Shown here: one piece after another, positions 1 to 42,478 of the stretch
Layout of the letters: every line of letters starts with the position of its first letter
Numbering within the stretch: the stretch's first letter is position 1
Assembly (NCBI GenBank): GCA_021807085.1
Contig: JAKAPM010000003.1
Span: 2,014-66,013 of the forward strand
Source: Nanobdellota archaeon
GTDB taxonomy: Archaea > Nanobdellota > Nanobdellia > Parvarchaeales > Parvarchaeaceae
Length of the DNA stretch: 64,000 nt
Reading direction: 5' to 3'
Notes under the pieces: generated by a model
Told to the model about the DNA's origin: nothing
The model's database searches: none
Seen by the model: only the letters and a program-made list of their open reading frames with translations
Made by a program: the position numbers and the translations under genes

Positions 1-76
1 CGGGTATACTAAGTCATTCCGTGATGAGATACAAATAAATGTAGGCAAAACAGGGTCGATAAGGAAATTGTAGATG

Positions 77-994
77 TTAGAGAGTATACCTGCTCTTATC
101 TACAGTTCTTGCGGTTATAGAGAGCCTGTCGTTGAACTTGTTGGATCTTCCACTAATATCCACTTGGTAGAGCCCGAAAGTAAGATCGTTTAACTTGTCG
201 TCAATCGATTCCTTCGAGGATAGGTCAAGGAGCTTTCTTGCGGCTTTGTCAAAGAACGAAATCCGCACGCTTCCGCTGCCATCGTCCAGCACACCAGTTA
301 TTAGCAGCATTTTCGATAGGGTTTTGTCTCCGTGTATATCGCATCTTTCAGGGACGGTCTTTTTGCATATTTCACATCTTATCAAGTATATCTTATTTGT
401 GAACAATCTTGTTATAAATCCCCTTATCGAATACGTGCGGTCCTCTTTGTCAATCTCATATACCATGCTTCTACTCCCACCCGTTGCTTCTTCAGCAGGT
501 GCAGCCACAGATTTTTCCTGATTTTTCGTGAGAGCTATTGCGCTGCCACTTCCTAAGTGGAGCTCCAGTCCACCAATCCTCCTATTCATCTTTGAGTATG
601 CATTTGCCACAGACAGGGCATCACCCCGTTCCGCCGTCTCTAGGTTCCCTATATGTCTCTCATTCCATACAACAATACCAATTTCGCCACTGTCGTCTTC
701 TAATATTAAGTTCATGACCTTGCCGACTCTACCCTTTATGATTACTGTCCTTGCTTCTTGTTTCCTTTTTATCCAACCACTGACATTTATATGGTTGAGA
801 TTTTCAACTACATCATTTATCTTGTACTTTCTGCGTATCGGCACCATGCCGTTCTCGGTAGCGATCATTCTAAGAGCAGCATCCTCGTTAAGTTCTGGGA
901 ACTCCGCTAATTTCTTGTTAACTAAACTCTGTATTCTTTCACCGTCTAGACCGGTCTTTTCCTTTATCGCACCAACAAGCCATTCTTCCATCAA
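77..994 (-). CDS. rpa: Replication protein A (single-stranded DNA-binding protein, OB-fold plus zinc ribbon)
   Basis: 305 aa. N-terminal RPA-like region, OB-fold body and a C-terminal CxxC...CxxH zinc-ribbon (CEICKK...CDIHGD) typical of archaeal RPA. Overlaps the upstream mutase stop by 4 nt, so operonic. Confidence 0.7.
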   Translation of the reverse strand: MMEEWLVGAIKEKTGLDGERIQSLVNKKLAEFPELNEDAALRMIATENGMVPIRRKYKINDVVENLNHINVSGWIKRKQEARTVIIKGRVGKVMNLILEDDSGEIGIVVWNERHIGNLETAERGDALSVANAYSKMNRRIGGLELHLGSGSAIALTKNQEKSVAAPAEEATGGSRSMVYEIDKEDRTYSIRGFITRLFTNKIYLIRCEICKKTVPERCDIHGDKTLSKMLLITGVLDDGSGSVRISFFDKAARKLLDLSSKESIDDKLNDLTFGLYQVDISGRSNKFNDRLSITARTVDKSRYTL

Positions 995-2277
995 CCAACA
1001 ATCTTTTCGACTGCCCTCTCTATCCTTTTTAGTTCTTTTTTAGTCGTTCCCTCATAATATACCCTTATGAGCGGCTCGGTATTGGATTCCCTAAATAACA
1101 TGAAACCACCACCCATTAATACCTTTACACCATCGAGTCTGTTCACTCTCCCATATTTTGCAGCTTTCTCTCTTATCTCCAACAATTTCTTGTACCTCTC
1201 AGCTTCGGTGGAAAATCTAATTTTTCTGTTTTTGTAGTGGATTGGAGGAAACTCCGCAACTAGCCCGCTCAGACTTTTCCCGTTCTCAGCCATAATTGAT
1301 GTGAGAAGTAATCCGCCGAGCAGACCATCGGAGAACGGGTAATAACCACCGAAATAGAAATGAGAGGAAGTTTCTACACCGAATTTATAATCGCCCCCAA
1401 CTAGTTTTTTTTCTATAAACGGTCTACCTACTTTTACGTATTTAACATCTGCGTATGCCTCCAATCTACGCGAACACGAGACTGTGGCTATTATTCTCTT
1501 ATAACCGAGGTATTTTATCATAATCATCGCAATAGTCATGGGGTCCACAAAGCGCCCCTTCTCATCCACGAAGGCAACCCTATCCCCGTCTGCATCCAGT
1601 TCTATGCCCAAATCCAATCTGCGTCTCTTTACAAGCTTCGATAAATCAACTATATTCTTCTTGGTCGGCTCGGGGACCTTTCCATAAAATGTCCTTGATG
1701 GTTTATCGTATAACATTTCAACACTCGAACCTACCTTATTGAACAGTCTTTTGGCAAGGCTACCTGTGGTGCCGCCCATGCTGTCTACCCCTATCTTTAG
1801 CGGTATTTTTCCAATGTTTCTAGATATATACCTAAGGTAGTCCTCAGAACAATCGCGCTTTATCAATTTTCCTTTTCGTTTACTAGAAAGTATTCTCGGC
1901 TTCATGTCGTCTATAATGTCCGATGGCTTTACCGTCACTCCTTCGTTGTAGGTCAAGATACCAGTGTATTCCGCTGGATTGTGCGACGCAGTAACGCATA
2001 TGCCATAACTCCTTTGCTTATAGGATAAGAACAGAGGGAGCATTATTGGCCCCAACCCCGTTTCTATAACATCCACACCAACCATTCTAAGCCCTTTGAT
2101 GACGCCATCCTTTATTTTGATACTCCCTTCTCTGTTATCATACCCGAGAAAAAGCGCCCTTCTACCAATTTTCCTGCCAATCTTTATCGCTATGTAGTAG
2201 GCTATCTTTTCGTTCAGCTCGACGGGGTACACTCCTCTTACATCGTATTCTTTGAACAAACCCTTTGGAATATCCAT
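991..2277 (-). CDS. alpha-D-phosphohexomutase (phosphoglucosamine mutase/phosphomannomutase family)
   Basis: 428 aa. Active-site phosphoserine motif GICVTASHNPAEYTG (TASHNP) and a DGDGDR Mg-binding loop (LDADGDRVAF). Confidence 0.8.
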   Translation of the reverse strand: MDIPKGLFKEYDVRGVYPVELNEKIAYYIAIKIGRKIGRRALFLGYDNREGSIKIKDGVIKGLRMVGVDVIETGLGPIMLPLFLSYKQRSYGICVTASHNPAEYTGILTYNEGVTVKPSDIIDDMKPRILSSKRKGKLIKRDCSEDYLRYISRNIGKIPLKIGVDSMGGTTGSLAKRLFNKVGSSVEMLYDKPSRTFYGKVPEPTKKNIVDLSKLVKRRRLDLGIELDADGDRVAFVDEKGRFVDPMTIAMIMIKYLGYKRIIATVSCSRRLEAYADVKYVKVGRPFIEKKLVGGDYKFGVETSSHFYFGGYYPFSDGLLGGLLLTSIMAENGKSLSGLVAEFPPIHYKNRKIRFSTEAERYKKLLEIREKAAKYGRVNRLDGVKVLMGGGFMLFRESNTEPLIRVYYEGTTKKELKRIERAVEKIVG

Positions 2278-2278
2278 G

Positions 2279-3319
2279 TCAAGAAATAACCTCTTCTAAT
2301 ACGTTTTTCAAGCCAGCAAACGCTTCACTTCTAGCCATATCAGTTATAGTTTGCCGTGTTTCGGTCTCTAGCGGTAACTTCGCAAGTATCGGCACACCTT
2401 CTATGCCCTCTTTTCCCACGAACGGCACCTCTATCTTGTGTCCACAATTTTTGCATCTTATATAACTCATATTTTCTATTATTCCACTAACAGGAATATT
2501 CAAAGCATTTGCCATAACAATCGTTTTCTTTCCTATCGTCTTAGATAAGGATTGGGGCGTCGTAACCACTATAACCCTGTCTACAGGTATTGATTGAAAG
2601 ACAGTTAGCGGCGCATCACTCGTACCTGGCGGTAAATCTAAAAGTAGTAAGTCTGTTTTTCCCCAGTCTGCATTGTTGTACATCTGTTTTATAGCGCTGG
2701 ATATAAGGGGCCCCCTCCATATTATTGCCTCTGCATCCGTAAGCATGTCTATGGAAACGACCTTTATATCCTCCATCTCGAACGGTTTTATCTTGCCGTC
2801 CTTATCTACTTCAGCTCTGTGAGTTTCTCCGAAAATAGAGAGCACAGACGGTCCGGATATGTCGCAGTCGAGTATCGCCACTTTGTGACCCAAGTTTTTT
2901 GCTATGATAGCCATTAGCGTAACTACTGTACTTTTCCCCACCCCCCCCTTCGCAGAATAAACCGCCACAATATTTCTTATACTTTTTTTATCATATCTTT
3001 CTATACTGTAAGGTATTTGTTTTTGCTCTGTTTGTATTTCTTCCTTTACCTTCTCCAACTCTTTTTTGGTCATGAAGGAAAAAGAGACTTCCGCCTCGTC
3101 GTATCCAGCTGCAGCTAGTGTCTCTTTTATATCCTTCTCTATAGTCGCAGACAACGGGCAGCCAGGGACAGTGAGTTTTATACCGATTTGTAGCCTGCCG
3201 TCTTCCCTGTCCACGGATTCTATCATCCGCAGTTTTTCTATGCTGATACCTATCTCCGGATCCTTTATCGACGCTAGTAACGAGTGTATCCTCTCTATTT
3301 CTGCTCTGTCTATACTCAT
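2279..3319 (-). CDS. Mrp/NBP35-family Fe-S cluster carrier ATPase with N-terminal DUF59/MIP18-like domain
   Basis: 346 aa. Deviant Walker A AVYSAKGGVGKST; conserved CxxC near the C-terminus (CKNC); N-terminal ~90 aa matches the DUF59 fold seen in ApbC/Mrp proteins. Confidence 0.8.
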   Translation of the reverse strand: MSIDRAEIERIHSLLASIKDPEIGISIEKLRMIESVDREDGRLQIGIKLTVPGCPLSATIEKDIKETLAAAGYDEAEVSFSFMTKKELEKVKEEIQTEQKQIPYSIERYDKKSIRNIVAVYSAKGGVGKSTVVTLMAIIAKNLGHKVAILDCDISGPSVLSIFGETHRAEVDKDGKIKPFEMEDIKVVSIDMLTDAEAIIWRGPLISSAIKQMYNNADWGKTDLLLLDLPPGTSDAPLTVFQSIPVDRVIVVTTPQSLSKTIGKKTIVMANALNIPVSGIIENMSYIRCKNCGHKIEVPFVGKEGIEGVPILAKLPLETETRQTITDMARSEAFAGLKNVLEEVIS

Positions 3320-4383
3320 TTTTTCTTCTCTTCTTCCACATCGGCTATTCCTTCCGCCGTTATCTGGAAATTCGCTTCGCCTTCCGGCAGACTCGGAGAA
3401 TCTACGAGTTTAGCCACTCTCGTGCCTTTCTTGCCTTTTCTAAGGTAAATTCTATAAGTGGCTACGTGACCTATTATGTGCCCCCCCACCGCAACTGTAG
3501 GGTCGCCGAACATGACGTCAGGCCTCGCCATCACCTGGTTTGTTATGTAGACAGCTATGTTGAATCTGTCTGCAAGCCTTTGTAGGTTGTGGAGTACCAC
3601 ATTCACTTTCTGTTGCCTGTCTGCAAGCGTTCCTCTCCCCACATATTCTGCCCTGAACAAGGCCATCATACTATCTACCACCACCAGTTTGATTTCTGGG
3701 TCCTTATTTATCAGTTCTGGGATTTTGTCTACCAATAGTATCTGGTGATCGGACGAGTACGCCCTGCCTATTTTTATGTTCTGTAGCGCCTGTTTTGGAT
3801 CCAGACCTTTTGATATCGCAAGCTGTTCTATCCTAGAGGGTCTGAACGTGCCTTCTGTGTCTATCCATATCGCGTGACCGGCAAGGCCTCCATTCTCTTT
3901 TGGTAACTGTACATTCACTGCTAGTTGGAACGCTATCTGGCTCTTTCCAGAGCCGTATTCTCCGTAGCATTCCGTTATTGACTGGGTTTCAACCCCGCCC
4001 CCAAGGAGAATGTCTAGCGCGTTGCTTCCAGTTGATACTCTCTGGACCATTTTCCTTTTATCTTCAAATTCCAAGCCCGAAAGAAAGTTCATTTTCAGCG
4101 CTTCCCTAGCTTCCGCGACTATCTTTCTGGCCGTAGGTTCCCCGACGCCACACGATTCCACTATATCGTTTGGATTGGCCACAGCCAGAGCCATTATATC
4201 TTGGTATCCTGCATTCTTTATTTTCGATGCTATCGCACCCCCGACTCCAGGTAGGTCTTTTATATCTTTGTAATCAAATTCGTCTGGTTCTACTTTTTCG
4301 TCCTCTTTTTCAATTTCCTCTTCTTGCTCATCCCCTTTCTGTTCTTCGTCGACTACGTCGTCTTTGTATCTTTTTTCTGCCAT
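3316..4383 (-). CDS. radA: DNA repair and recombination protein RadA
   Basis: 355 aa. N-terminal HhH domain (DLPGVGGAIASKI), Walker A GEYGSGKSQ, RecA/Rad51 core with a Walker B stretch (KLVVVDS). Confidence 0.9.
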   Translation of the reverse strand: MAEKRYKDDVVDEEQKGDEQEEEIEKEDEKVEPDEFDYKDIKDLPGVGGAIASKIKNAGYQDIMALAVANPNDIVESCGVGEPTARKIVAEAREALKMNFLSGLEFEDKRKMVQRVSTGSNALDILLGGGVETQSITECYGEYGSGKSQIAFQLAVNVQLPKENGGLAGHAIWIDTEGTFRPSRIEQLAISKGLDPKQALQNIKIGRAYSSDHQILLVDKIPELINKDPEIKLVVVDSMMALFRAEYVGRGTLADRQQKVNVVLHNLQRLADRFNIAVYITNQVMARPDVMFGDPTVAVGGHIIGHVATYRIYLRKGKKGTRVAKLVDSPSLPEGEANFQITAEGIADVEEEKKK

Positions 4384-4393
4384 ATCTTACCCC

Positions 4394-4633
4394 CTACTTT
4401 ACTTTGTTCAGTACTATTGTGGTATCTGTCTTGCCCACACCCTTTTCTCTCCTGAGCTCGGATACTACAAAGTTCGACAGCTCGTCCATGTTTTCGTACC
4501 CGAATCTTATCATGAGGTCCCATTGTCCGCTTATGAGAATTACTTCCTCGACACCCTTTATCTCTGCGACTCTTTTGGCTATCTCTATGACCGACTTTCC
4601 TTCTTCTATCTCTGCGAAAATTAGGGCTTCCAT
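4394..4633 (-). CDS. Stand-alone Lrp/AsnC-type RAM (ligand-binding) domain protein
   Basis: 79 aa with a beta-alpha-beta-beta-alpha-beta pattern matching the C-terminal regulatory domain of Lrp/AsnC regulators, with no HTH. Lies immediately upstream of radA on the same strand. Confidence 0.5.
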   Translation of the reverse strand: MEALIFAEIEEGKSVIEIAKRVAEIKGVEEVILISGQWDLMIRFGYENMDELSNFVVSELRREKGVGKTDTTIVLNKVK

Positions 4634-4726
4634 ACTAGATTATACTTTATGATAGTAGTCTGGATATTTAATGTTTTACGCGGTAAATGCTCTTTGTCGT
4701 TTATCCACCACACCACTGCAAAACCA

Positions 4727-5425
4727 CTATTCCTCTTTTGCTATTGCCTGCATGCATTCACTGTAGTATGGGCAGTATTTACATTGCCAGACGGTCTTAT
4801 CGTCGAAATAGTATTCAGCTGGCGGTAATTTCTTGTTTCTTAAGTGGTAATCTAAGTCTTTGAACCTGTTAACTATCTTCTGGTAAACCCCACTGTCGTA
4901 ATCCACTCTGAACTGCCTTATATCAAGATTCTTCTTATCTGCATAGACTAAGATACCATAATCTGCCTTTTGGGCCGCAAGGTAGAGTGTTATCTGCATT
5001 ATGTGCTTAGGATCAGGTTCATTTACTTTGTGGACATCCCCACTAGATTTGGCTTCTATTATTATGGTCTTCCCCCCCTTCGTTACAACAAAATCGTCTA
5101 TCCTTCCATAGACGGCAAATGATGTGTCCTTGTCCGAATATTCTATCCTTATCGGTTTCTCTTCCTCCACAGTTTCTAGTCTCTCAGAGGCTTTCAGTGC
5201 CTTCGTTATAAACTCGTGGACATTGTTGCCCATTGCAAATATCCTCAGTGCTGATGCCTCTGTCGGCTTTGGTATATTATAAGAATAGTAGCTCCTTCTT
5301 ATGCACATCCCTATTTCACTTGGAAAGTATGCTCCCAACTTCTTAGGTCTCATCTCATCTGTAAGGTATTCATCAATTATGTCACCGACATTCAGATCGC
5401 TTTTTTCGTCGTGGTTTTGGATCAT
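4727..5425 (-). CDS. Cas4-like/RecB-family PD-(D/E)xK nuclease with 4-Cys Fe-S cluster motif (not CRISPR-associated here)
   Basis: 232 aa. One N-terminal Cys (GMCIRR) plus a C-terminal CKYCPYYSEC triad, the Cas4/AddB-type 4Fe-4S arrangement. PD-(D/E)xK core GRIDDFVV...IIIEAKSS. No cas genes or repeats nearby. Confidence 0.6.
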   Translation of the reverse strand: MIQNHDEKSDLNVGDIIDEYLTDEMRPKKLGAYFPSEIGMCIRRSYYSYNIPKPTEASALRIFAMGNNVHEFITKALKASERLETVEEEKPIRIEYSDKDTSFAVYGRIDDFVVTKGGKTIIIEAKSSGDVHKVNEPDPKHIMQITLYLAAQKADYGILVYADKKNLDIRQFRVDYDSGVYQKIVNRFKDLDYHLRNKKLPPAEYYFDDKTVWQCKYCPYYSECMQAIAKEE

Positions 5426-5477
5426 ATCTAATTTATAGCACGGAAAGTAATTTAAATGTGAATATTTTCATACTCTG

Positions 5478-6152
5478 ATGAGAGCTCTAGTCCTGTCGCT
5501 AGGGATAGCGTTCGTAGTGATATTCGTGCTACTGTTCCTGCTAGTGAATTATAATACCATCTACAAATGGGATGAATCCGCGTTCCTACTGATTAATTCC
5601 ACGTTCAATGTTTCGTATCTTAACGGCTTTTTTGCTGCCCTGTCTATTTACGGAAGGGAGTACTTTTGGGTGCCCGTAGTGATACTGTTGTGGCTGTTGG
5701 GCAAGGAGAACGGCAAGAAAACTGCACTTATGATGGTGATTGTATTCGTGCTTGTCATAATAATAGGGTTCGCCCTGAAAGATGTCTATTACAGGCCTAG
5801 ACCGTTCCTTTCTATTGTCAACGCGATAGTGCTGGTTCCAAAAGATTTTGATTCGTCCTTTCCTTCCGGCCACGCTCTTGTGGTGGCCGCGGGTGCCACC
5901 GTAGCGTTCCTTATGCTCAAGAAACGCTATTCTATACCTCTGCTGATCGAGGCTGCGCTGGTGATATACTCAAGAGTGTATGTTGGAGTGCACTACCCAA
6001 CAGACGTCGTTGCCGGGCTGTTTCTCGGAGCCGCCATTGCTCTAATAACTTACGCCCTTTTAGTCGATTCAAGGGTATTCAGGACGATTTCAGAGGCTTT
6101 GATTTCTATCTATAGTAAGGTTATCTCCACCGTTAGATTGAAACGTATCTGA
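5478..6152 (+). CDS. PAP2-family membrane phosphatase (phosphatidic acid phosphatase type 2 superfamily)
   Basis: 224 aa polytopic protein with PAP2 motifs KxxxxxxRP (YYRPRPF), PSGH (SFPSGHA) and SRxxxxxHxxxD (SRVYVGVHYPTDV). Confidence 0.75.
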   Translation: MRALVLSLGIAFVVIFVLLFLLVNYNTIYKWDESAFLLINSTFNVSYLNGFFAALSIYGREYFWVPVVILLWLLGKENGKKTALMMVIVFVLVIIIGFALKDVYYRPRPFLSIVNAIVLVPKDFDSSFPSGHALVVAAGATVAFLMLKKRYSIPLLIEAALVIYSRVYVGVHYPTDVVAGLFLGAAIALITYALLVDSRVFRTISEALISIYSKVISTVRLKRI

Positions 6153-12108: not shown

Positions 12109-13467
12109 ATGAATGAGTCTGCGATATTTAGAGCCTACGACATAAGAGGGGTTTACGGCCAGGAACTGGATGAGGAGGCAGCACTTCTAGTTGGAAAGGC
12201 GGTTGGCACGTACGCAGGTGACGGTAAGTATGTCGCCGTCGGGAGGGATGTGCGCCTCAGCAGTGATTCCCTGCACGAAAAAGTGGTTGAAGGTATAATC
12301 TCTACTGGCTGCAATGTGGTAGATTTTGGCATAATACCCACCCCTCTTCTCTATTTCGGGGTGAACCATGAGAATCTATCTGGTGGTATAATGATAACTG
12401 CTTCGCACCTACCACCAGAATGGAACGGCTTTAAGATAGTCAAGGAAAAGGGCTTCATACTGTCCGATGGCACAGGATTGGAGAATATACACAACATATT
12501 CACAAAAAGGGCCTTCGCGACAGCCACCACCTCCGGCAAGGTCGCCGACATGTCAATATTGGACAAATACAAAAGATTTTGCGTGGAAAATATACCTCCC
12601 GGCAAGAGGCTGAGCGTTGTGCTCGACTATGCCAACAGCGTAACTTCCCTCGTGGCTGGGGACATAATAAGGAAACTCGGATTCGATGTTCACGAGATAA
12701 ACAAGGAACTGGATGGAACATTCCCCAACAGAGCATCCGAACCGAGCGAAGAGTCACTCCAGGGCCTAAAAAAAGAGGTTTTGGAGAGGAAGGCCGATAT
12801 AGGGATAGGCTATGATGGCGACGGTGATAGAGTGGCTTTCGTGGACGAAAGAGGGAGGATATTTGCTTCAGGCGATGTAACGATACCAATTCTTACCAAA
12901 CATTTGATGGGCAGAAAGGGGCCGGGAAAGGTCGTGCTTGATGTCACGTGCTCTCTGGCCATGGCTGACTACTTAAAAAATCTAGGGGCGGAACCGATAG
13001 TCGTCAGGACGGGGCACGGGTACTGCGTCCAGGCCGTGCTGGAGAACAATGCCCTGATAGGGGGGCAGTTCAGCGGGCATATAGCCCTGCCGGATGCCAA
13101 CTGCGCGGATGATGCCATATACGCCAGCCTCATCCTGCTGGATGCGCTAGTATCGAGTAGTGCGAAACTGTCCGAGCTAGTGGATTCTGTACCAAGCTAT
13201 AGCACTACTAAAATGGAACTGGTCGAGTGTCCAGATTCAGAGAAATTTGGAGTAATGGAGAAAGTGAGGGGTCTGGCCCGAAAATTGGATTATGATAAAC
13301 TAGAAATAGATGGAGTGAAGCTCATCGGCGATGATGGGGGGGTCCTGATAAGGGCTTCCAATACATCTCCTTTTATCCGCATAAGCGCAGAAGGCAAAAC
13401 AAAAGAAAAAGCAGAGGAATTTCACAGAACTGGGAAGACTCTGCTCGTAGAGGCGATGGGCGCATGA
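12109..13467 (+). CDS. Phosphomannomutase/phosphoglucomutase-family phosphohexomutase (candidate phospho-sugar or phospho-acetylglucosamine mutase)
   Basis: 452 aa. Active-site TASHLPPEWNG (phosphoserine loop) and GYDGDGDRVAF metal loop. Divergent in sequence from the second mutase at 991..2277. Confidence 0.8.
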   Translation: MNESAIFRAYDIRGVYGQELDEEAALLVGKAVGTYAGDGKYVAVGRDVRLSSDSLHEKVVEGIISTGCNVVDFGIIPTPLLYFGVNHENLSGGIMITASHLPPEWNGFKIVKEKGFILSDGTGLENIHNIFTKRAFATATTSGKVADMSILDKYKRFCVENIPPGKRLSVVLDYANSVTSLVAGDIIRKLGFDVHEINKELDGTFPNRASEPSEESLQGLKKEVLERKADIGIGYDGDGDRVAFVDERGRIFASGDVTIPILTKHLMGRKGPGKVVLDVTCSLAMADYLKNLGAEPIVVRTGHGYCVQAVLENNALIGGQFSGHIALPDANCADDAIYASLILLDALVSSSAKLSELVDSVPSYSTTKMELVECPDSEKFGVMEKVRGLARKLDYDKLEIDGVKLIGDDGGVLIRASNTSPFIRISAEGKTKEKAEEFHRTGKTLLVEAMGA

Positions 13468-14624
13468 TAAAACAGGCAGTTATACTGGCTGCGGGAAGGG
13501 GTAACAGGATGAAAAAAGGCTCTATCGACCCCACTATCCTCAACACCCCCAAGCCGCTGCTGAGGGTCAACGGAACGCCGATGATAGAAACCATAGCCGA
13601 CAAGCTGGTTTCGCACGGGATGGAAGTCATCGTGGTGGTCCACCCTGAGGATAAGAAGAAGTTCGAAGATGCCCTTTCCAAATATGTTGGGAATATAACC
13701 TATTGCCTCCAGGAAGACAGACTCGGCACCGCTTCGGCGCTGTACGCTGCGAAGGATGCAGTAAAGGACGATCTTTTCCTGGTTTTCATGGGCGACGACA
13801 TCACCAAATATGACATAGATAATATAAGAAAGACCACTCGTCCGTCTGTATTCGGCTATAGAGTCGATGACGTTAGCGGCTACGGGGCTCTCTTGTTAGA
13901 CGGAGACGAGGTTCTTGACATACTCGAGAAGAAACTCAACGGGCCAGGAGTAGCCAACACTGGCGTGTACGTCATGCCCCACGCTTTTTTTGACATCTAC
14001 AGCAGTATACCTAAAGATGAGAGGAGCGGGGAATATTTCCTGACGCATGCTGTAAGGCTGCTGAGAGACGCAAACACGAAATTTTATCTGAGAAACATAG
14101 ACTTCTGGTTTGGTGTAAACACACCAGAACAGCTGGCGGCTGCAAATGCAACATTCAACTTGGCTTCTAGGAATGGGCTGTCGGACAACGAGCAGCTGAG
14201 GCTTATAACAAGGGATGACCTAAAGGAGGTCCTTAATGTTTTGTACCAGCTCAGTCCGCCAGGTGGAAAAGACGACGCTATGTCACCAGAAATTCTGTCT
14301 TCCGTGCTTGGCGAGATAATCGCAGATAAAAACCACCATATGGCTGTTTATGAGGATAACAGTAGAGTAGTCGGCACTGCCACTCTTCTTGTGCAGAGAA
14401 ATCTATCGCATGGGGGAAAGCCTTACGGGCACATAGAGAATGTTGTGGTGGACAATAGTTACAGGGGTAAAGGAGTCGGTTTGAAGCTTCTCAAATACCT
14501 CATAAACATTGCAAGGGAAGAGGGCTGCTACAAGCTCGTGCTGAACTGCAACGACAGCAACATTCCTTTCTACGAGAAGATAGGTTTCAGGGTGCACGAA
14601 AGAGAGATGCGTCTCGATTTGTAA
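13464..14624 (+). CDS. Bifunctional fusion: N-terminal GlmU/RmlA-like sugar-1-phosphate nucleotidyltransferase plus C-terminal GNA1-type (glucosamine-6-phosphate N-acetyltransferase-like) GNAT domain
   Basis: 386 aa. N-terminus AVILAAGRGNRM matches the nucleotidyltransferase G-x-G-x-R loop of GlmU/RmlA. C-terminal ~160 aa aligns collinearly with eukaryotic GNA1 as I recall it: ...LITRDDLKEVLNVLYQLS...SPE...VVGTATLLVQ...HIENVVVDNSYRGKGVGLKLL...CYKLVLNC...FYEKIGFRV. Overlaps the upstream mutase by 4 nt. Confidence 0.75.
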   Translation: MIKQAVILAAGRGNRMKKGSIDPTILNTPKPLLRVNGTPMIETIADKLVSHGMEVIVVVHPEDKKKFEDALSKYVGNITYCLQEDRLGTASALYAAKDAVKDDLFLVFMGDDITKYDIDNIRKTTRPSVFGYRVDDVSGYGALLLDGDEVLDILEKKLNGPGVANTGVYVMPHAFFDIYSSIPKDERSGEYFLTHAVRLLRDANTKFYLRNIDFWFGVNTPEQLAAANATFNLASRNGLSDNEQLRLITRDDLKEVLNVLYQLSPPGGKDDAMSPEILSSVLGEIIADKNHHMAVYEDNSRVVGTATLLVQRNLSHGGKPYGHIENVVVDNSYRGKGVGLKLLKYLINIAREEGCYKLVLNCNDSNIPFYEKIGFRVHEREMRLDL

Positions 14625-14707
14625 GTTTCCGTAAATATTTTCGCTTACAGGCTTCCTGTGATAACAGTGTTATAATATATTTAAATGATCGCATATAACT
14701 AATATTC

Positions 14708-15076: not shown

Positions 15077-15814
15077 ATGGCAGAGTTAAAAATCTTGGAT
15101 TTAGACGTCAATATATCGGACACAAAGAAGATAATAAAGGGGTTGAACCTGTCCGTAAAAGGGGGAGAACTACACGTTCTGATGGGCCCAAATGGTAGTG
15201 GAAAGAGCACGCTGGCGAACGCAATATTCGGTAATCCAAAATACATCGTGAAAGCTGGCAAGATAGAGCTGGACGGTGAGAATCTTCTGTCATTGAAGGT
15301 GGATGAGAGGGCCAGAAAGGGGCTGTTTCTGGCGTTTCAGGAGCCCGTAGAGGTACCGGGCGTCAATGTAATGAACTTTTTGAGGATAGCTTTCGGGCAG
15401 CTCAAACCTGGCGACCCGCAGATAACTGACTTTAGGCAGACTGTCGTCGCCTACTTGAAAAGATTTGGTCTAGCAGAACATTTTCTAAAAAGAGCCCTCA
15501 ACGAAGGTTTTTCTGGCGGGGAAAAGAAGCGCTTTGAGCTTCTACAGGCTATCCTCTTCTCCCCCAAGATAGCAGTGCTTGATGAATTGGATTCTGGGCT
15601 GGACATGGACAGTGTAAAAACTATGGCGGAAGCTGTTAGAGAGCAACTCGCCAAAGGCACTGGAATACTCATGATAACTCACAGCGAGAAAATGTTCGAA
15701 TACCTGAAACCAGATTTCATACATATTATGGTTGACGGAAAGATAGTCAGAAGCGGCGGCTCAGAAATAGCCAGTGAGCTGCACAGCAAGGGGTACGCTG
15801 GCCTGGGTGGATGA
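15077..15814 (+). CDS. sufC: Fe-S cluster assembly ATPase SufC
   Basis: 245 aa ABC ATPase. Walker A GPNGSGKST, ABC signature FSGGEKKR, Walker B IAVLDELDSGLD, H-loop ITH. Confidence 0.9.
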   Translation: MAELKILDLDVNISDTKKIIKGLNLSVKGGELHVLMGPNGSGKSTLANAIFGNPKYIVKAGKIELDGENLLSLKVDERARKGLFLAFQEPVEVPGVNVMNFLRIAFGQLKPGDPQITDFRQTVVAYLKRFGLAEHFLKRALNEGFSGGEKKRFELLQAILFSPKIAVLDELDSGLDMDSVKTMAEAVREQLAKGTGILMITHSEKMFEYLKPDFIHIMVDGKIVRSGGSEIASELHSKGYAGLGG

Positions 15815-17208
15815 TTATGGAAAAGCTAGCTTTCGACTACAGTGGATATAATTTCCGCAACGGCACCGACTACGAGCTGAAATTTCCGAAAGGGCTGACT
15901 AAGGAAGTGGTGGAGAGGATTTCGAAGCTCAAGAACGAGCCGGATTGGATGCTAGAGTTCAGGCTGAACGCTTATAAATTCTTCCTCAACAGACCGATCC
16001 CTACATGGGGCGGAGACTTGAGTGAGATAGATTTTGATAGTATACATTATTTCATGAGGGCGACCAAGAGTATGGCTACAAAGTGGGATGAGCTTCCAGC
16101 CGACATAAGAGCCACTTACGACAAACTCGGCATACCGGAAGCGGAGAAAAAGGCGCTTTCAGGCGTTGAAGTAATGTATGAGAGTGAGAGCATATACAGC
16201 AGCATAAAAAAGGAGCTGGAGAACATCGGCGTCATATTTTGTGACACCGACACCGCCGTTAGGAAATATCCCGAACTCGTGAAGAAATACATAGGGCATG
16301 TAGTATCGTCGAACGATAACAAGTTCGCCGCGCTGAACTCCGCGGTGTGGAGTGGTGGCAGCTTCATATACGTGCCTAAGGGAGTAAGAGTGCCGATGCC
16401 ACTGCAGGCATACTTTAGGATAAACGCAGAGAGTATGGGCCAGTTCGAGAGAACTTTGATAATAGTGGATGAGGGTGCGGATGTGACGTACATAGAAGGG
16501 TGCAGTGCGCCGGTTTACTCGAATAATTCCCTCCACGCTGCCGTCGTTGAGATAATAGCCCATAGGAATTCTCATGTCAAATATATAACTATACAGAACT
16601 GGTCAGATAACATCTATAATCTTGTTACCAAAAGAGCATTCGCGCACGAGAATGCATTTGTAGAATGGGTGGACGCAAATATAGGTTCACGGCTGACTGA
16701 AAAATACCCGTCGGTCTACATGCTGGAGGAGGGCGCCAAAGCGAACATCATCTCGATAGCCTTCGCGAACAAGGGCCAGCATCAGGACGCCGGCGCGAAA
16801 GCTGTGCATCTGGCGTCCAATACCAGCTCCACCATACGTTCAAAGTCGATATGTGTCAATGGAGGCAGGACAAGCTATCGTGGACTGGTGAAAGTTATTA
16901 GGGGCGCGGAAGACGTAAAATCTAGCACAAGATGTGACGCCCTGATACTCGATGAAATTTCGAGAAGCGACACTTATCCATATATGGAGGTAGATGAACC
17001 TTCCGCCACCATAACGCATGAAGCGACAGTCGGCAAAATAGGGGACGAACAGCTCTTCTATATGCAGTCCAGGGGGCTCTCAGAACAGGATGCTGTAAAC
17101 ACAATAGTGCTAGGTTTCATGGCCGACTTCATAAACGAGTTGCCGTTGGAATTTGCCATAGAATTTAATCGTTTGATAAAAATAAGTATGGAAGGGGCGG
17201 TGGGATAG
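15811..17208 (+). CDS. sufB: Fe-S cluster assembly scaffold SufB
   Basis: 465 aa. SufB/SufD beta-helix core with a conserved Cys (EGCSAP) and a C-terminal motif; overlaps sufC by 4 nt. Confidence 0.9.
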   Translation: MIMEKLAFDYSGYNFRNGTDYELKFPKGLTKEVVERISKLKNEPDWMLEFRLNAYKFFLNRPIPTWGGDLSEIDFDSIHYFMRATKSMATKWDELPADIRATYDKLGIPEAEKKALSGVEVMYESESIYSSIKKELENIGVIFCDTDTAVRKYPELVKKYIGHVVSSNDNKFAALNSAVWSGGSFIYVPKGVRVPMPLQAYFRINAESMGQFERTLIIVDEGADVTYIEGCSAPVYSNNSLHAAVVEIIAHRNSHVKYITIQNWSDNIYNLVTKRAFAHENAFVEWVDANIGSRLTEKYPSVYMLEEGAKANIISIAFANKGQHQDAGAKAVHLASNTSSTIRSKSICVNGGRTSYRGLVKVIRGAEDVKSSTRCDALILDEISRSDTYPYMEVDEPSATITHEATVGKIGDEQLFYMQSRGLSEQDAVNTIVLGFMADFINELPLEFAIEFNRLIKISMEGAVG

Positions 17209-18399
17209 ATGTCCCGCGACGATTTTCTTGTAAAATTTTCAAAGGACAAAGGGGAGCCCGATTGGCTGCTTAATTACCGAAAGAAAGCGCTTTCTGAATC
17301 ATCTCGGCTAGCGTTCGAACCAGATTCTAAATTTTCAAAATACAACGACAGGGAGAGATACTTGACGTTATCTGAAAGTGAACTGGAGATAGCGTACACC
17401 AAGCCTGAAGAGAATAGAACATCGTCGATTCACAGCAACGCCTCTGGGATTCTTGTGGAAGAAATCAGTTCTGCGCTAAAGAATGACAAGCGGCTTCGCG
17501 ATGCCGTCGAACACGAAGTAAATTATGACTCTGTGGGGGCGGCTATAAACTCTTCGTTTAGCTCTGGACTCTTCATACGCGTGCCGGATTCGTATTCCGC
17601 TCAGGTTCCGCTGCAGATATCAACCTCTGTTTTCATGGGACTCAACATAAACAAGAGTGCAATTATAGTGGGTAAAAACAGTCACGTCAAAATCGTGTGC
17701 GAACTTGTATCTGCGGACGCGTCGCCTTCCAAGTTTATGCAGAACCTTTCCGTGCGCATCGGTCAAGACTCGTCGTTGCAGCTCTACTCTATACAAGCTA
17801 CAAACCCTTACACTATAGTTTCTGTCTGGCGTGATGTATATTCGGAGGGCAAGTTTGGCTTCGTATCGTTGGATTCGGGGGGGAATAGCATAAGGTCCAG
17901 GCTGAAATTAGACCTGGAGCACGGTGGGGCAGAAGGCGACGTTTACGAGGCGTTTGTAGGGAGGAGTGATATGTACTTTGACGTGTTCAACAAGATTGAC
18001 CACACAAAGGGAAACACAATCAGTAGAACAAATTCCAGGGCGATACTGGACGACAGTTCGAAAGCAGTTTTCAAAGGTTCCGTACACCAGGAGAAAGAAG
18101 CAATAGCATCTCATACAACCCTATCTGAACACTCCCTCCTTCTGAGCAGTGGCGCAAGGAGCGTATCCATACCGGGTCTGGAAATAGAGACGAATGAGGT
18201 CAGCGCATCGCATTCTGCGTCTTCCCATACCATAAGTAAAGAAGATAAGTTCTACTTGATGTCCAGGGGAATAGAGGAAAAGGGCGCAGCCAACATGATA
18301 GCAGTAGGTTTCCTGGATCCAGTTCTGTCGAAGTTTTACAGCGGCCTGTCTGACTATTACGGTAACATCGAAGAAAGATTGAAAAATATAGTAATTTAA
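17209..18399 (+). CDS. sufD: Fe-S cluster assembly protein SufD
   Basis: 396 aa SufB/D-family paralog directly after sufB (start 1 nt after the sufB stop). Confidence 0.8.
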   Translation: MSRDDFLVKFSKDKGEPDWLLNYRKKALSESSRLAFEPDSKFSKYNDRERYLTLSESELEIAYTKPEENRTSSIHSNASGILVEEISSALKNDKRLRDAVEHEVNYDSVGAAINSSFSSGLFIRVPDSYSAQVPLQISTSVFMGLNINKSAIIVGKNSHVKIVCELVSADASPSKFMQNLSVRIGQDSSLQLYSIQATNPYTIVSVWRDVYSEGKFGFVSLDSGGNSIRSRLKLDLEHGGAEGDVYEAFVGRSDMYFDVFNKIDHTKGNTISRTNSRAILDDSSKAVFKGSVHQEKEAIASHTTLSEHSLLLSSGARSVSIPGLEIETNEVSASHSASSHTISKEDKFYLMSRGIEEKGAANMIAVGFLDPVLSKFYSGLSDYYGNIEERLKNIVI

Positions 18400-29643: not shown

Positions 29644-29979
29644 ATGTACAACAAAATGAAAGGTTACAGAGTAGAGAGAAAAGTAAAACTGATGTTCGTA
29701 GCGGATGGTTGGAAAGTCGTGCGCGCTGGAGGAAGCCTGGGAGAGTACGACTTGATAGCGTTCAAGAACGGGGAATGTGTATTTCTTCAGATAAAATCCA
29801 CTAAAAAGGATAAATTCTACTACTACGGCTACATGGAAGATAAGTACGAAGGCTTCCCTTTCAGGCTGGTCGTGGATTTTGGCAGGGGCAACGTTAGGAT
29901 AACCAAGCCGGGCAAGATGCTAACCGCTTCAGAAGGGGAGGGTTTGGAGGATTTTCTGCACGGAAACAGTTTCCATTAG
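29644..29979 (+). CDS. hjc: Holliday junction resolvase Hjc (catalytic motif variant E->Q)
   Basis: 111 aa. Collinear with my recollection of Pyrococcus Hjc: KGYRVERKVKLMFVADGWKVVRAGGSLGEYDLIAFKNGECVFLQIKSTKKD against ERELIKLL..VVRSAGSKKVDLVAG..IEVKVTKKD. The third catalytic position reads Q-I-K, not E-V-K. Starts 3 nt after the upstream gene. Confidence 0.75.
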   Translation: MYNKMKGYRVERKVKLMFVADGWKVVRAGGSLGEYDLIAFKNGECVFLQIKSTKKDKFYYYGYMEDKYEGFPFRLVVDFGRGNVRITKPGKMLTASEGEGLEDFLHGNSFH

Positions 29980-40747: not shown

Positions 40748-42478
40748 TCAGGCCTTTAGTTTTACGTTTTTCTGTCCTTTGAACATCTCGATTATTTCGT
40801 GAGTGGTATTGACATCCCCCGCGTCCTTGTCGCTTCTTAAAAATGATACTGCCCTCGGGAACCTGAGTGCGTAACCCACTCCGTTCTCCTGTCCGCATGT
40901 GTGTATCGGACTCCTAGTTATCTCGTCAGCTTTTACAGTTATGACATACCTCGGCATAACCCAAACGTCCGGTTCCATTATCGAATTGACGCGAGCCGGT
41001 TTTTTCTCGGTGCTGATTTCATCCAGCATTTTTCTCAACTCCCTGAACTGTTCTTCTGAGAAGCCCGAACCTACCTTTGTAAGAGTCTCAAATTCGTCCC
41101 TGTTTTTGTTGTATACCCCCCCGAGCACAGCACCTATCCCGAAATTTGCTCTCATTCCACGGCCCTTAAAGTAGCCGAGTATTACTATATCTACAGTGTC
41201 GGATAGCTGTGACTTATACGATCTCTTCATCTTTATCCAGTCGAAATTCCTTGCCCCTGCGGAGTAGGGAGAATCGAGCTTCTTGGCCACAACCCCTTCT
41301 AATCCTGCGCCGACAGTCTCTTCGAAGAATTTTGTGAACTCCTTGACGCTGTCGGTAACTATCTCCTTGTTCTTGCATATCGTGGAATCTTCCGCAAATG
41401 TCTCGTCCACCATCTCCCTCCTTTTTACGTACGGTTCGTTCATAAGGTCGAGGTCATCCAGTAGCATCATGTCAAAAACGAACAGTCTCAGCGGAAAGTT
41501 TTCTGAAACTTCTTCTATATTGTGCTTGCGCTTCCTCTGTATGGTTATCTGGAACGGATAGAGGGTGTTTGTATCTTCATCGTATGTTAGGGCCTCTCCG
41601 TCGAATATCATCCTCCTGTGTTTGAGTTTCTTTACGGCGGCTACAATCTCTGGCATGAAGTGCGTTATATCCTCAAGGTTCCTTGAAAAGATCTTCACTT
41701 TCTCACCGTCCTTGTGTACCTGCGCCCTGAAACCGTCCAGTTTTTGGTCCACCGCGCACCTACCTAGCTTTTTGATTATATCTTCCGCGCTTGGCAAGCG
41801 CTCCGCCAGTGCCGGCCTTATCGGCCTCATTACTCTTACTTCGAATTTTCTTATCCCTTCTTCCCCTTTGTCGTAGAACACTTCCGCTACATAACCTAGG
41901 TCAGAACAGAGGTTGTATGCTCTTTCTAGCGAGGCCTTAAACTCTCTTTTGCCGGTCTTTGCTTTCGACAGCGCTTCCATTATCGTTGCCTCGCCGACGC
42001 CCAATCTGAGTTTTCCCATCACGAACCTTATTATATACCTAGAGCTCAGAGGCGACACTTCCTTCAGAAGTTTTGCCAGCGAAGTGATCTTGCCCTCTAC
42101 GCTGCCACTTCCCGATATCTTCGATAGCTCGAATATCCTATCGTACACTTCCGACACCGACAGTTCCGATTTTTCCTTTCTATGGTCATATTTCTCCGCG
42201 GCCTCTCCCAGGTCGCCAACCTTTTTGCTGTAGGCTTTTACAGTCTCCAGATCCACATTGTGGGCGTCGGATATAGCTTTCTCCACCATTCTATCCGCCA
42301 TACCAAGCTGTATATCGAAGAAGGGCGGCAGTAGTTCCTCCTGCATGAGGTAAACAGTCTTTGCTATGTCCCTTCTGTCCGCTCTTGAGAATACCTCAGA
42401 CAGTATGTCAAACATCTCGAGGCGTTTCGTGGTAGCTTCGAGTTTCTGGAAATACTCGCTGAGTTCCTCGAACTTCAT
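40748..42478 (-). CDS. lig: ATP-dependent DNA ligase
   Basis: 576 aa. Adenylation motif I DQKLDGFRAQ (KxDG), DNA-binding N-terminal domain, OB-fold C-terminal domain with conserved motifs (EGVVAK, DTVDIVILG). Confidence 0.9.
   Translation of the reverse strand: MKFEELSEYFQKLEATTKRLEMFDILSEVFSRADRRDIAKTVYLMQEELLPPFFDIQLGMADRMVEKAISDAHNVDLETVKAYSKKVGDLGEAAEKYDHRKEKSELSVSEVYDRIFELSKISGSGSVEGKITSLAKLLKEVSPLSSRYIIRFVMGKLRLGVGEATIMEALSKAKTGKREFKASLERAYNLCSDLGYVAEVFYDKGEEGIRKFEVRVMRPIRPALAERLPSAEDIIKKLGRCAVDQKLDGFRAQVHKDGEKVKIFSRNLEDITHFMPEIVAAVKKLKHRRMIFDGEALTYDEDTNTLYPFQITIQRKRKHNIEEVSENFPLRLFVFDMMLLDDLDLMNEPYVKRREMVDETFAEDSTICKNKEIVTDSVKEFTKFFEETVGAGLEGVVAKKLDSPYSAGARNFDWIKMKRSYKSQLSDTVDIVILGYFKGRGMRANFGIGAVLGGVYNKNRDEFETLTKVGSGFSEEQFRELRKMLDEISTEKKPARVNSIMEPDVWVMPRYVITVKADEITRSPIHTCGQENGVGYALRFPRAVSFLRSDKDAGDVNTTHEIIEMFKGQKNVKLKA

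Follow-up and report, generated by a model that had tools for sequence, protein, structure and literature searches.

Solo-Cas4 nucleases and the neighbourhood of radA in archaea

Cas4-like nucleases encoded outside CRISPR-cas loci, the solo-Cas4 proteins, are nearly universal in small DPANN genomes without CRISPR. As presented by Hudaiberdiev et al. in 2017, most DPANN archaea, and explicitly Parvarchaeota among them, have solo-Cas4 and lack the CRISPR-linked form; the solo-Cas4 genes are mainly inherited vertically, and their role ("defense or repair") is uncharacterised (PMC5704561). The one archaeal solo-Cas4 that has been characterised, that of M. mazei, is an oligomeric [4Fe-4S] nuclease induced in stationary phase and acting preferentially on supercoiled dsDNA (PMC12501428). 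The gene considered here belongs to a Nanobdellota archaeon of the family Parvarchaeaceae (order Parvarchaeales), a tiny ARMAN-4/5-like DPANN archaeon of acid mines, and lies in a stretch of 64,000 nucleotides (nt) referred to below as the window (assembly GCA_021807085.1, contig JAKAPM010000003.1, positions 2,014 to 66,013 of the forward strand). Within positions 77..5425 of the window, on the minus strand, it is followed by a string of five genes, the radA string, encoding a RAM-domain protein, the recombinase RadA, an Mrp-type ATPase, a phosphohexomutase (pgm) and an RPA41-like single-stranded DNA (ssDNA)-binding protein (rpa).

Stand-alone RAM-domain proteins form a class whose physiological role is uncharacterised (PMC2995911), and a survey of archaeal gene context published in 2008 treated the association of replication genes with RadA in general terms only (PMC2643942). 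In the literature searched, no description was found of a RAM-radA-mrp string in Parvarchaeales or of an abutting or overlapping rpa-radA pair in DPANN archaea; a literature search for Mre11, Rad50, HerA and NurA in DPANN gave nothing usable. Every component of the locus is a member of a known family, and solo-Cas4 has been reported from Parvarchaeota before. The locus can be regarded as largely ordinary, a lineage-specific operon with a chance neighbour.

Layout of the locus and gene spacing

The arrangement that we consider probable, though short of certain, is that of two independent units lying side by side, a Parvarchaeales-specific radA string and a separately promoted solo-Cas4 gene. 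The original prediction, made from the letters of the window and a list of its open reading frames (ORFs), had drawn a single tightly overlapped operon headed by a divergent Cas4-like nuclease. All six gene identities assigned there are borne out by Pfam and NCBIfam, and the ORF list confirms six consecutive ORFs with correct coordinates between positions 77 and 5425. The Cas4-like gene (4727..5425) is not divergent, however: it lies on the same strand as the other five, and the divergent neighbour is a PAP2 gene (5478..6152, plus strand). From the stop codon of the Cas4-like gene to the ATG of the RAM gene there are 93 non-coding nt, and the junctions further along the RAM-radA-mrp-pgm-rpa string, all of whose genes share one strand, measure +10, -4, +1 and -1 nt. 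The 10-nt RAM/radA gap holds GGGGGT, a Shine-Dalgarno-like element; radA and mrp overlap by 4 nt (ATGA); mrp and pgm are 1 nt apart; and pgm and rpa overlap by 1 nt (TGATG) from the ATG start of rpa, which is also the start in an independent gene call on the source contig (304 amino acids, aa), the overlap reaching 4 nt only with a TTG start. A spacing of 4 nt or less, claimed for all five genes, therefore holds at three of the four junctions and fails at RAM/radA.

The meaning of such spacing depends on its background in the genome. Gene calls on the source contig and on a near-identical contig, covering the window to about 55 kb, gave a median same-strand spacing of 2.5 nt for 50 neighbour pairs in and just beyond the window; 56% of these pairs are spaced by 4 nt or less and 78% by 25 nt or less, and coding sequence makes up about 96% of the total. 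Besides the radA string there are eight further tight runs of three to eight genes each, some of them functionally mixed, such as Sec61beta-nitroreductase-S27e-L44e and DUF929-deoxyhypusine synthase-Ssb-like. Since unrelated genes are packed tightly as a rule here, tightness by itself is no signal, and tight overlap as a special feature of the radA string is ruled out by the spacing distribution of the window. The mixture of functions that had seemed unusual is partly a matter of genome compaction. Gene overlap in a DPANN genome is thus unreadable as functional coupling unless it is set against a spacing background and a synteny check.

Promoter signals and probable transcription units

A TATA-like motif, [AT]TT[AT][AT]A[AT][AT], typically TTTAAATA, was searched for with its start at -45..-20 from the ATG. 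Within the window it precedes 12 of the 19 genes with an upstream gap of at least 40 nt, versus 2 of the 40 with shorter gaps. At the locus such boxes are present before the RAM gene (-39), the Cas4-like gene (-32/-31) and the PAP2 gene (-28), while radA, mrp, pgm and rpa have none at -45..-20. The 93-nt spacer between the Cas4-like and RAM genes (4634..4726) begins with a TTTT run right after the Cas4-like stop codon and contains the TATA-like ATTAAATA at -39 from the RAM ATG, which is likely the promoter of the five-gene unit. The 52-nt divergent spacer between the Cas4-like and PAP2 genes (5426..5477) contains a palindromic ATTTAAAT, which lies about 31 nt before the ATG of the Cas4-like gene and about 28 nt before that of PAP2, and from which the Cas4-like gene is likely transcribed. 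This single palindromic sequence could serve both directions.

In each of the six Parvarchaeales radA loci collected, whatever the upstream gene, a TATA-like box precedes the RAM ATG by 25-40 nt. From the promoter boxes, the Shine-Dalgarno-like element and the overlapping stop and start codons we infer two transcription units, the Cas4-like gene alone and RAM-radA-mrp-pgm-rpa. Of the co-transcription originally proposed, the five-gene part remains plausible, the internal genes having no TATA-like box of their own, and the Cas4-like gene as its head fails on the synteny described below, the RAM and Cas4-like genes moreover having separate boxes. Across the window the boxes lie mostly 28-33 nt before the ATG (examples are found in 5426..5477, 4634..4726 and 14625..14707), a position that would fit mostly leaderless or short-leader mRNAs. 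A scan for promoters and terminators of bacterial type gave hits at the level of shuffled sequence and was set aside as uninformative for an archaeon.

Synteny of the Cas4-like gene and of the radA string

A scan centred on the Cas4-like gene, taking a single genome for each GTDB species, gave 38 loci, of which 30 have full-length close homologues in metagenome-assembled genomes (MAGs) named Parvarchaeota, Nanoarchaeota or Woesearchaeota; 28 loci with at least 1.5 kb downstream of the gene were informative. Besides the genome studied here, RAM-radA-mrp lies directly downstream of the Cas4-like gene in only one of the 28 (L025). In another (L019) the string is 3.6 kb away on the opposite strand. 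A second scan, centred on RadA, covered 80 metagenomic loci, in none of which did a search with hidden Markov models (HMMs) find a Cas4-like gene within about 8 kb of radA. The two scans rule out a conserved Cas4-like/radA linkage, and the Cas4-like/RAM/radA adjacency, which had been put forward for a conservation check, thus turns out to be rare. The constant partner of the Cas4-like gene is instead the divergent PAP2 gene, present upstream in 24 of the 30 full-length Parvarchaeales loci; here it encodes a PAP2/undecaprenyl-diphosphatase-like protein (PF01569, 86 bits; NF047884, 163 bits, below the cut-off of 250). As the adjacency to radA is rare and PAP2 is the constant partner, a local rearrangement is the best explanation of the former.

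Downstream of the Cas4-like gene the neighbours vary within the order. In 11 loci of the ARMAN-4/5 clade (L003, L004, L005, L007-L011, L013, L016 and L020) the gene converges on NifU/SufU-like, cysteine desulfurase and VIT1-type iron transporter genes, so that the gene of a predicted Fe-S nuclease adjoins Fe-S assembly genes in convergent orientation. In the present genome the genes for a cysteine desulfurase-type protein (Aminotran_5) and for VIT1 stand on the far side of the radA string, at a distance of about 8 kb.

The radA string has a distribution of its own. Three of the 80 metagenomic loci (L041-L043) have a RadA at least 78% identical to the one studied here, and the other 77 (L044-L120) a RadA of 52-63% identity in sequences of 26-55% GC. 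RAM-radA-mrp is present in all six Parvarchaeales radA loci, i.e., the window, L019, L025, L041, L042 and L043, over which the identity of the RAM protein falls to 42% and that of Mrp to 46%. The remaining two genes are less constant: pgm follows mrp in the window, L041 and L042, and pgm-rpa is found in the window and L042; in L025 the string stops at mrp, and in L019 there is no pgm or rpa downstream of mrp. Among the 77 non-Parvarchaeales loci an HMM search found no RAM gene, and tblastn found no mrp beside radA and pgm in only two loci, about 5 kb away. The possibility that RAM, Mrp or PGM adjoins radA beyond Parvarchaeales was accordingly discarded, neither tblastn nor the RAM HMM giving a case.

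The link between radA and rpa extends further. Of the 77 non-Parvarchaeales loci, 24 have an RPA41-like gene on the strand of radA within 400 nt upstream of it and a further 17 within 3 kb; 15 of the others have too short an upstream sequence to judge. Seven rpa-radA pairs were resolved at the ORF level, and in these the genes abut, overlap by up to 8 nt or are separated by a gap of at most 13 nt. Such pairs occur on many low-GC archaeal metagenome contigs, examples being L088 (6986-9023) and L107 (6957-8927). A homologue search placed RadA of the L107 type nearest (77-82% identity) to proteins named Ca. Aenigmatarchaeota, and in the Aenigmatarchaeota MAG GCA_038999725.1 (L123, 4004-5948) radA is overlapped over 26 nt by an rpa gene whose product has Rep_fac-A_C and an OB fold. 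The pairs in other DPANN make the RadA-RPA linkage apparently a wider DPANN trait, and one with an evident functional rationale. The DPANN rpa-radA pair and the order-specific RAM-radA-mrp string of Parvarchaeales are two small comparative by-products of the analysis, of modest interest.

The Cas4-like protein

The Cas4-like gene encodes a PD-(D/E)xK protein of 232 aa that scores 34.4 bits against PDDEXK_1/PF12705 (threshold 22). Its motifs, all on the minus strand, are C41 in GMCIRR (5294-5311), GRIDD (5093-5107), IEAKS (5045-5059), QITLY (4982-4996) and CKYCPYYSEC (4754-4783). Among 20 homologues the cysteines C41, C215, C218 and C224 are invariant, and so are GRIDD (D110/D111), E124-x-K126 and Q144xxxY148. 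The description of a PD-(D/E)xK nuclease with a four-cysteine cluster is thus sound, and the conserved D/E/K residues, on whose absence from a proper alignment it might have foundered, are all aligned and present. The family assignment, for which an HMM check had been suggested, is less sharp: Cas_Cas4 (PF01930) is barely passed, with 23.2 bits against a gathering score of 22.7, and TIGR00372, with 50.4 bits, stays below its cut-off of 65. The PADLOC models for Cas4 give about 50 bits, accompanied by one weak match to DruK (19 bits).

A profile of the 20 homologues matches one solved family, Cas4 SSO0001 (4IC1, 7e-8), in an alignment that covers the N-terminal Cys-x-R-R, GR-x-D, ExK, QxxxY and WECKYC, and thus C41, C215 and C218. 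The AlphaFold model has a mean pLDDT (predicted local distance difference test score) of 77.7, with a confident core and a poor segment at residues 24-52, which includes C41. When it was used as a Foldseek query, 4IC1 came first (3e-8), followed by ACE1, AdnAB/AddAB, MGME1 and EXO5; the TM-score to 4IC1 is low (0.44) despite the significant E-value because residues 24-52 are modelled poorly. An exhaustive profile search returned 2,683 cluster representatives at E <=1e-3, and the family is therefore large. MAGs that bear the names Ca. Parvarchaeum ARMAN-4/5, Parvarchaeota or 'Nanoarchaeota' contain homologues of 55-77% identity, and these place the window in a Parvarchaeales (DPANN) archaeon.

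No CRISPR-like repeats were found in the 64 kb, no cas genes are present among the Pfam-annotated gene calls or among the ORFs scanned to about 62.8 kb, and an Rfam scan of the window gave no match. The protein is therefore a solo-Cas4, and the lack of a CRISPR context seen originally is confirmed for the 64 kb as regards repeats and for the called genes and scanned ORFs as regards cas domains. From its motifs, the product is predicted to be a DNA nuclease of the Cas4/RecB/AddB kind that depends on metal, carries an Fe-S cluster and acts outside CRISPR. Its strongest library match is to a viral family, phrog_1706 (131 bits, versus about 50 for any cellular Cas4 model), and tblastn showed about 26% identity to gp19 of the rudiviruses SIRV1/2/3. 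These matches reflect a family relationship, not a provirus. An origin of the gene in a mobile element or a defence system was considered and rejected, as its position is stable across the order and PADLOC yielded only Cas4 models and the weak DruK match.

The products of the radA string

The first gene of the string (4394..4633, minus strand) encodes a RAM-only protein of 79 aa without a helix-turn-helix (HTH) domain (PF01037, 55 bits, residues 12-76), whose closest PDB entry is 2ZBC, an asnC-type protein of 83 aa. It is probably a small module that binds an amino acid or another metabolite and, by analogy with other stand-alone RAM proteins, may act through hetero-oligomers with full-length Lrp.

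RadA (3316..4383, minus strand, 355 aa) scores well above the cut-offs of NF003301 (463 bits, cut-off 259) and TIGR02236 (449 bits, cut-off 361), has the HHH_5 and Rad51 Pfam domains, and carries the Walker A motif GEYGSGKSQ at 3937-3963. Its residues 1-38 form a strongly acidic extension (DDVVDEEQKGDEQEEEIEKEDEKVEPDEFD) before the helix-hairpin-helix domain, and shorter charged N-terminal extensions are present in some other DPANN RadA proteins. The next product (2279..3319, minus strand) is an Fe-S carrier ATPase of the Mrp/ApbC/NBP35 type with an N-terminal DUF59 domain (PF10609, NUBPL ParA, 232 bits; PF01883, 49 bits). It has the deviant Walker A motif KGGVGKST (2927-2950) and CKNC (2444-2455), and falls below the ApbC and MrpORP equivalog cut-offs.

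The fourth gene (991..2277, minus strand) encodes an alpha-D-phosphohexomutase of 428 aa of the phosphomannomutase/phosphoglucomutase (PMM/PGM) type, with four PGM_PMM domains, all above their gathering thresholds, the active-site loop TASHNP (1975-1992) and the metal loop DADGDR (1579-1596). Its PDB matches are the AlgC PMM/PGM (145 bits), phosphopentomutase 9IX8 (116 bits) and GlmM (about 99 bits), and against Arch_GlmM it reaches 261 bits, the cut-off being 439. A second PGM/PMM paralogue, 28% identical to that of the string, lies at 12109..13467 on the plus strand and overlaps by 4 nt a GlmU-like gene (13464..14624, plus strand); together with this nucleotidyl/acetyltransferase gene it probably makes up a GlmM/GlmU pair.

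The last gene of the string (77..991, minus strand) encodes an RPA41-like ssDNA-binding protein (304 aa from the ATG; PF01336 5e-10, NF006255 4e-25) whose top PDB match is P. abyssi RFA (8AAJ, 2e-23, residues 5-271). Its N-terminal helical domain is followed by two OB folds, the second of which carries the zinc motif CEIC-x7-CDIH (aa 206-220; 332-376). The NCBIfam equivalog cut-offs are not reached (88 vs 442 bits), and its RPA membership accordingly holds at the family level only. Convergent with rpa, with stop codons 3 nt apart, is a gene for a 94-aa Ssb-like OB-fold protein (PF21473, 32 bits; window 1..73, plus strand, running past the window start; L001 15353-15637), so that a second small ssDNA-binding protein adjoins the RPA41-like gene.

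Other genes for DNA maintenance and Fe-S metabolism are located elsewhere in the window: the Holliday-junction resolvase Hjc (29644..29979, plus strand), an ATP-dependent DNA ligase (40748..42478, minus strand) and SufC-SufB-SufD (15077..18399, plus strand). It may also be mentioned that at 47144..49198 (minus strand) the gene for the thiamine pyrophosphate (TPP)-binding subunit of a 2-oxoacid:ferredoxin oxidoreductase has Intein_splicing and LAGLIDADG domains, i.e., it contains an intein.

How the locus may work and alternative explanations

In the arrangement of two independent units, RAM, radA, mrp, pgm and rpa (from 4633 to 77 on the minus strand) would be transcribed into one mRNA from the TATA box about 39 nt before the RAM start. 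RadA would be translated from the Shine-Dalgarno-like element, and Mrp, the mutase and RPA by translational coupling at the overlapping or abutting stop and start codons. In homologous recombination RPA coats and protects resected ssDNA, and RadA replaces RPA, forms a filament and carries out strand exchange. The two would thus be a functionally coupled pair which one mRNA could keep in step, with Mrp and the phosphohexomutase as housekeeping passengers packed into the unit, as happens throughout this 96%-coding genome, and the RAM-only module as a companion that would have travelled with radA-mrp throughout the order. The solo-Cas4 gene, with its own promoter, would be one half of a divergent PAP2/solo-cas4 pair conserved across Parvarchaeales, presumably brought beside the radA string by a local rearrangement in this lineage.

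Several observations weigh against this arrangement. In L019, L042 and L025 the spacer between RAM and radA is longer and has a TATA-like box of its own; with internal promoters in these relatives, others could sit hidden inside the coding sequence here. Only a weak archaeal terminator, four Ts, follows the stop codon of the Cas4-like gene, so that read-through into the RAM gene is possible. The radA/mrp junction is tight, overlapping or closely spaced, in six lineages with RAM always upstream, and the conservation of this junction and of RAM exceeds what pure hitch-hiking predicts, although all six lineages are of one order. Finally, for most of the non-Parvarchaeales radA loci the nearest named RadA is the only guide to taxonomy.

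The conservation of RAM-radA-mrp leads to the first alternative, in which the mixture is functional: RAM would modulate radA expression or RadA activity in response to a metabolite, Mrp would supply Fe-S clusters to enzymes of DNA metabolism such as the neighbouring solo-Cas4, and the mutase would feed a (deoxy)ribose-phosphate salvage. We hold it to be unlikely. The three genes have stayed together in six Parvarchaeales lineages in spite of the divergence of RAM and Mrp, with a tight radA/mrp junction in six of six loci; a solved phosphopentomutase (9IX8) is among the matches of the mutase, and the window contains a DeoC gene; and Fe-S assembly genes (sufU-sufS) adjoin the Cas4-like gene in the ARMAN-4/5 clade. 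The combination of DUF59 with NBP35 is, besides, the architecture of eukaryotic components of the cytosolic Fe-S protein assembly (CIA) machinery, which mature Fe-S DNA-repair enzymes. Conservation inside one order of compact genomes is, however, weak functional evidence. RAM, Mrp and PGM do not accompany radA in the 77 nearest non-Parvarchaeales loci, and pgm-rpa is separated from radA-mrp in L025 and L019. The mutase matches PMM/PGM better than phosphopentomutase, and sufU-sufS, given their convergent orientation, do not share a transcript with the Cas4-like gene. The RAM-only protein lacks a DNA-binding domain and belongs to a class of uncharacterised role (PMC2995911); to call it a regulator is a guess.

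According to the second alternative, the solo-Cas4 heads a recombination module, in which it would provide 5'->3' resection for RPA and RadA, replace HerA-NurA and Mre11-Rad50, and be co-regulated with the operon. This appears quite improbable. The catalytic residues of the nuclease, of the Cas4/RecB type, and the four-cysteine cluster are nevertheless intact and invariant; its structural relatives, SSO0001, AddB/AdnAB, MGME1 and EXO5, are end-processing nucleases; and the adjacency to RAM-radA recurs in L025. No Mre11, Rad50, HerA or NurA domain was found in the genes and larger ORFs annotated to about 62.8 kb of the window, so that the absence of these genes nearby, noted in the original prediction, is true within the window. 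A viral homologue, SIRV2 gp19 (26% identity), is the nuclease in an operon with an SSB (ssDNA-binding protein) and an annealing protein, for which a role in recombination was proposed (PMC5062984), and a repair role was suggested for solo-Cas4 in small genomes (PMC5704561). Against these points stand the presence of the adjacency in just one of 28 other Parvarchaeales species loci and none of 80 metagenomic radA loci, PAP2 and not radA as the conserved partner, and the 93-nt spacer with its own TATA box that divides the Cas4-like gene from the RAM unit. The M. mazei solo-Cas4, with its preference for supercoiled dsDNA and its stationary-phase induction, is no obvious fit to a resection enzyme (PMC12501428). 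Resection for RadA by the Cas4-like nuclease is possible, and synteny gives it no support; the radA locus provides no special evidence for solo-Cas4 as the resection nuclease. If solo-Cas4 did resect ends, a missing piece in the initiation of homologous recombination by these minimal archaea would be supplied.

In a further reading, the conserved RAM-radA-mrp of Parvarchaeales would be a dedicated control-and-supply module of recombination in a minimal genome: RAM would gate the expression or activity of RadA on a signal from an amino acid or another metabolite, the DUF59-NBP35 Mrp would load Fe-S clusters onto DNA-repair nucleases including solo-Cas4, and solo-Cas4 would resect ends in place of HerA-NurA and Mre11-Rad50. 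We give it very little weight; if true, the eukaryotic link between CIA and DNA repair would have a counterpart in archaea.

It is likewise very improbable that there is no operon at all, with most or all genes transcribed from their own promoters inside the preceding coding sequence, a situation known from some compact archaeal genomes, and spacing silent on co-expression. This might be argued from the box between RAM and radA in L019, L042 and L025 and from the tight spacing found throughout the genome whatever the function. Against it, radA, mrp, pgm and rpa show no TATA-like box at -45..-20, the motif is generally confined to long gaps (2/40 short-gap vs 12/19 long-gap genes), radA is preceded by the Shine-Dalgarno-like GGGGGT, and overlaps such as ATGA and TGATG are a usual sign of translational coupling.

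Comparison with known systems

Taken again as a radA string and an independent solo-Cas4 gene, the locus can be set beside five described or detected systems. An archaeal mre11-rad50-herA-nurA cluster would fill the step proposed for the Cas4-like nuclease, the production of 3' ssDNA for RadA; the cluster has no homology to the Cas4-like protein, and none of its four genes is in the window. In the gp17-gp18-gp19 operon of SIRV2 a homologue of the Cas4-like protein, the ssDNA nuclease gp19 (26% identity over 84% of the length), stands beside the SSB gp17 and a recombination protein, the ssDNA-annealing gp18. That operon differs in being viral, in having an annealing protein instead of RadA, and in a linkage conserved in rudiviruses, whereas the Cas4-like/radA linkage described here is not conserved.

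Like the RAM protein of the string, the demi-FFRPs (P. horikoshii DM1 and S. tokodaii STS042; 2ZBC) are of about 80 aa and consist of the Lrp/AsnC ligand-binding domain without an HTH; the position 5' of radA-mrp, conserved here, is not mentioned in the review cited above (PMC2995911). With the solo-Cas4 proteins of DPANN (PMC5704561; SSO0001/4IC1) the Cas4-like protein shares the D/ExK/QxxxY motifs, the C...CxxC...C set, the size of about 230 aa and the location outside CRISPR-cas. As in those, inheritance is apparently vertical, with homologues of 55-77% identity and a PAP2-linked position conserved across Parvarchaeales; unlike them, this gene is under the trusted cut-off of TIGR00372, has its strongest profile match in the viral phrog_1706 and, in this lineage, abuts the radA string.

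The two-gene rpa-radA operon of other DPANN (e.g., L123) has the same partners as the string, tightly linked on the same strand, and its RPA shares with the one encoded here the N-terminal helical domain, the OB fold and the zinc-finger OB fold. The order of the genes is different: in the DPANN pair rpa comes first and abuts or overlaps radA, whereas in the present locus radA precedes rpa, with mrp and pgm between them and RAM in front.

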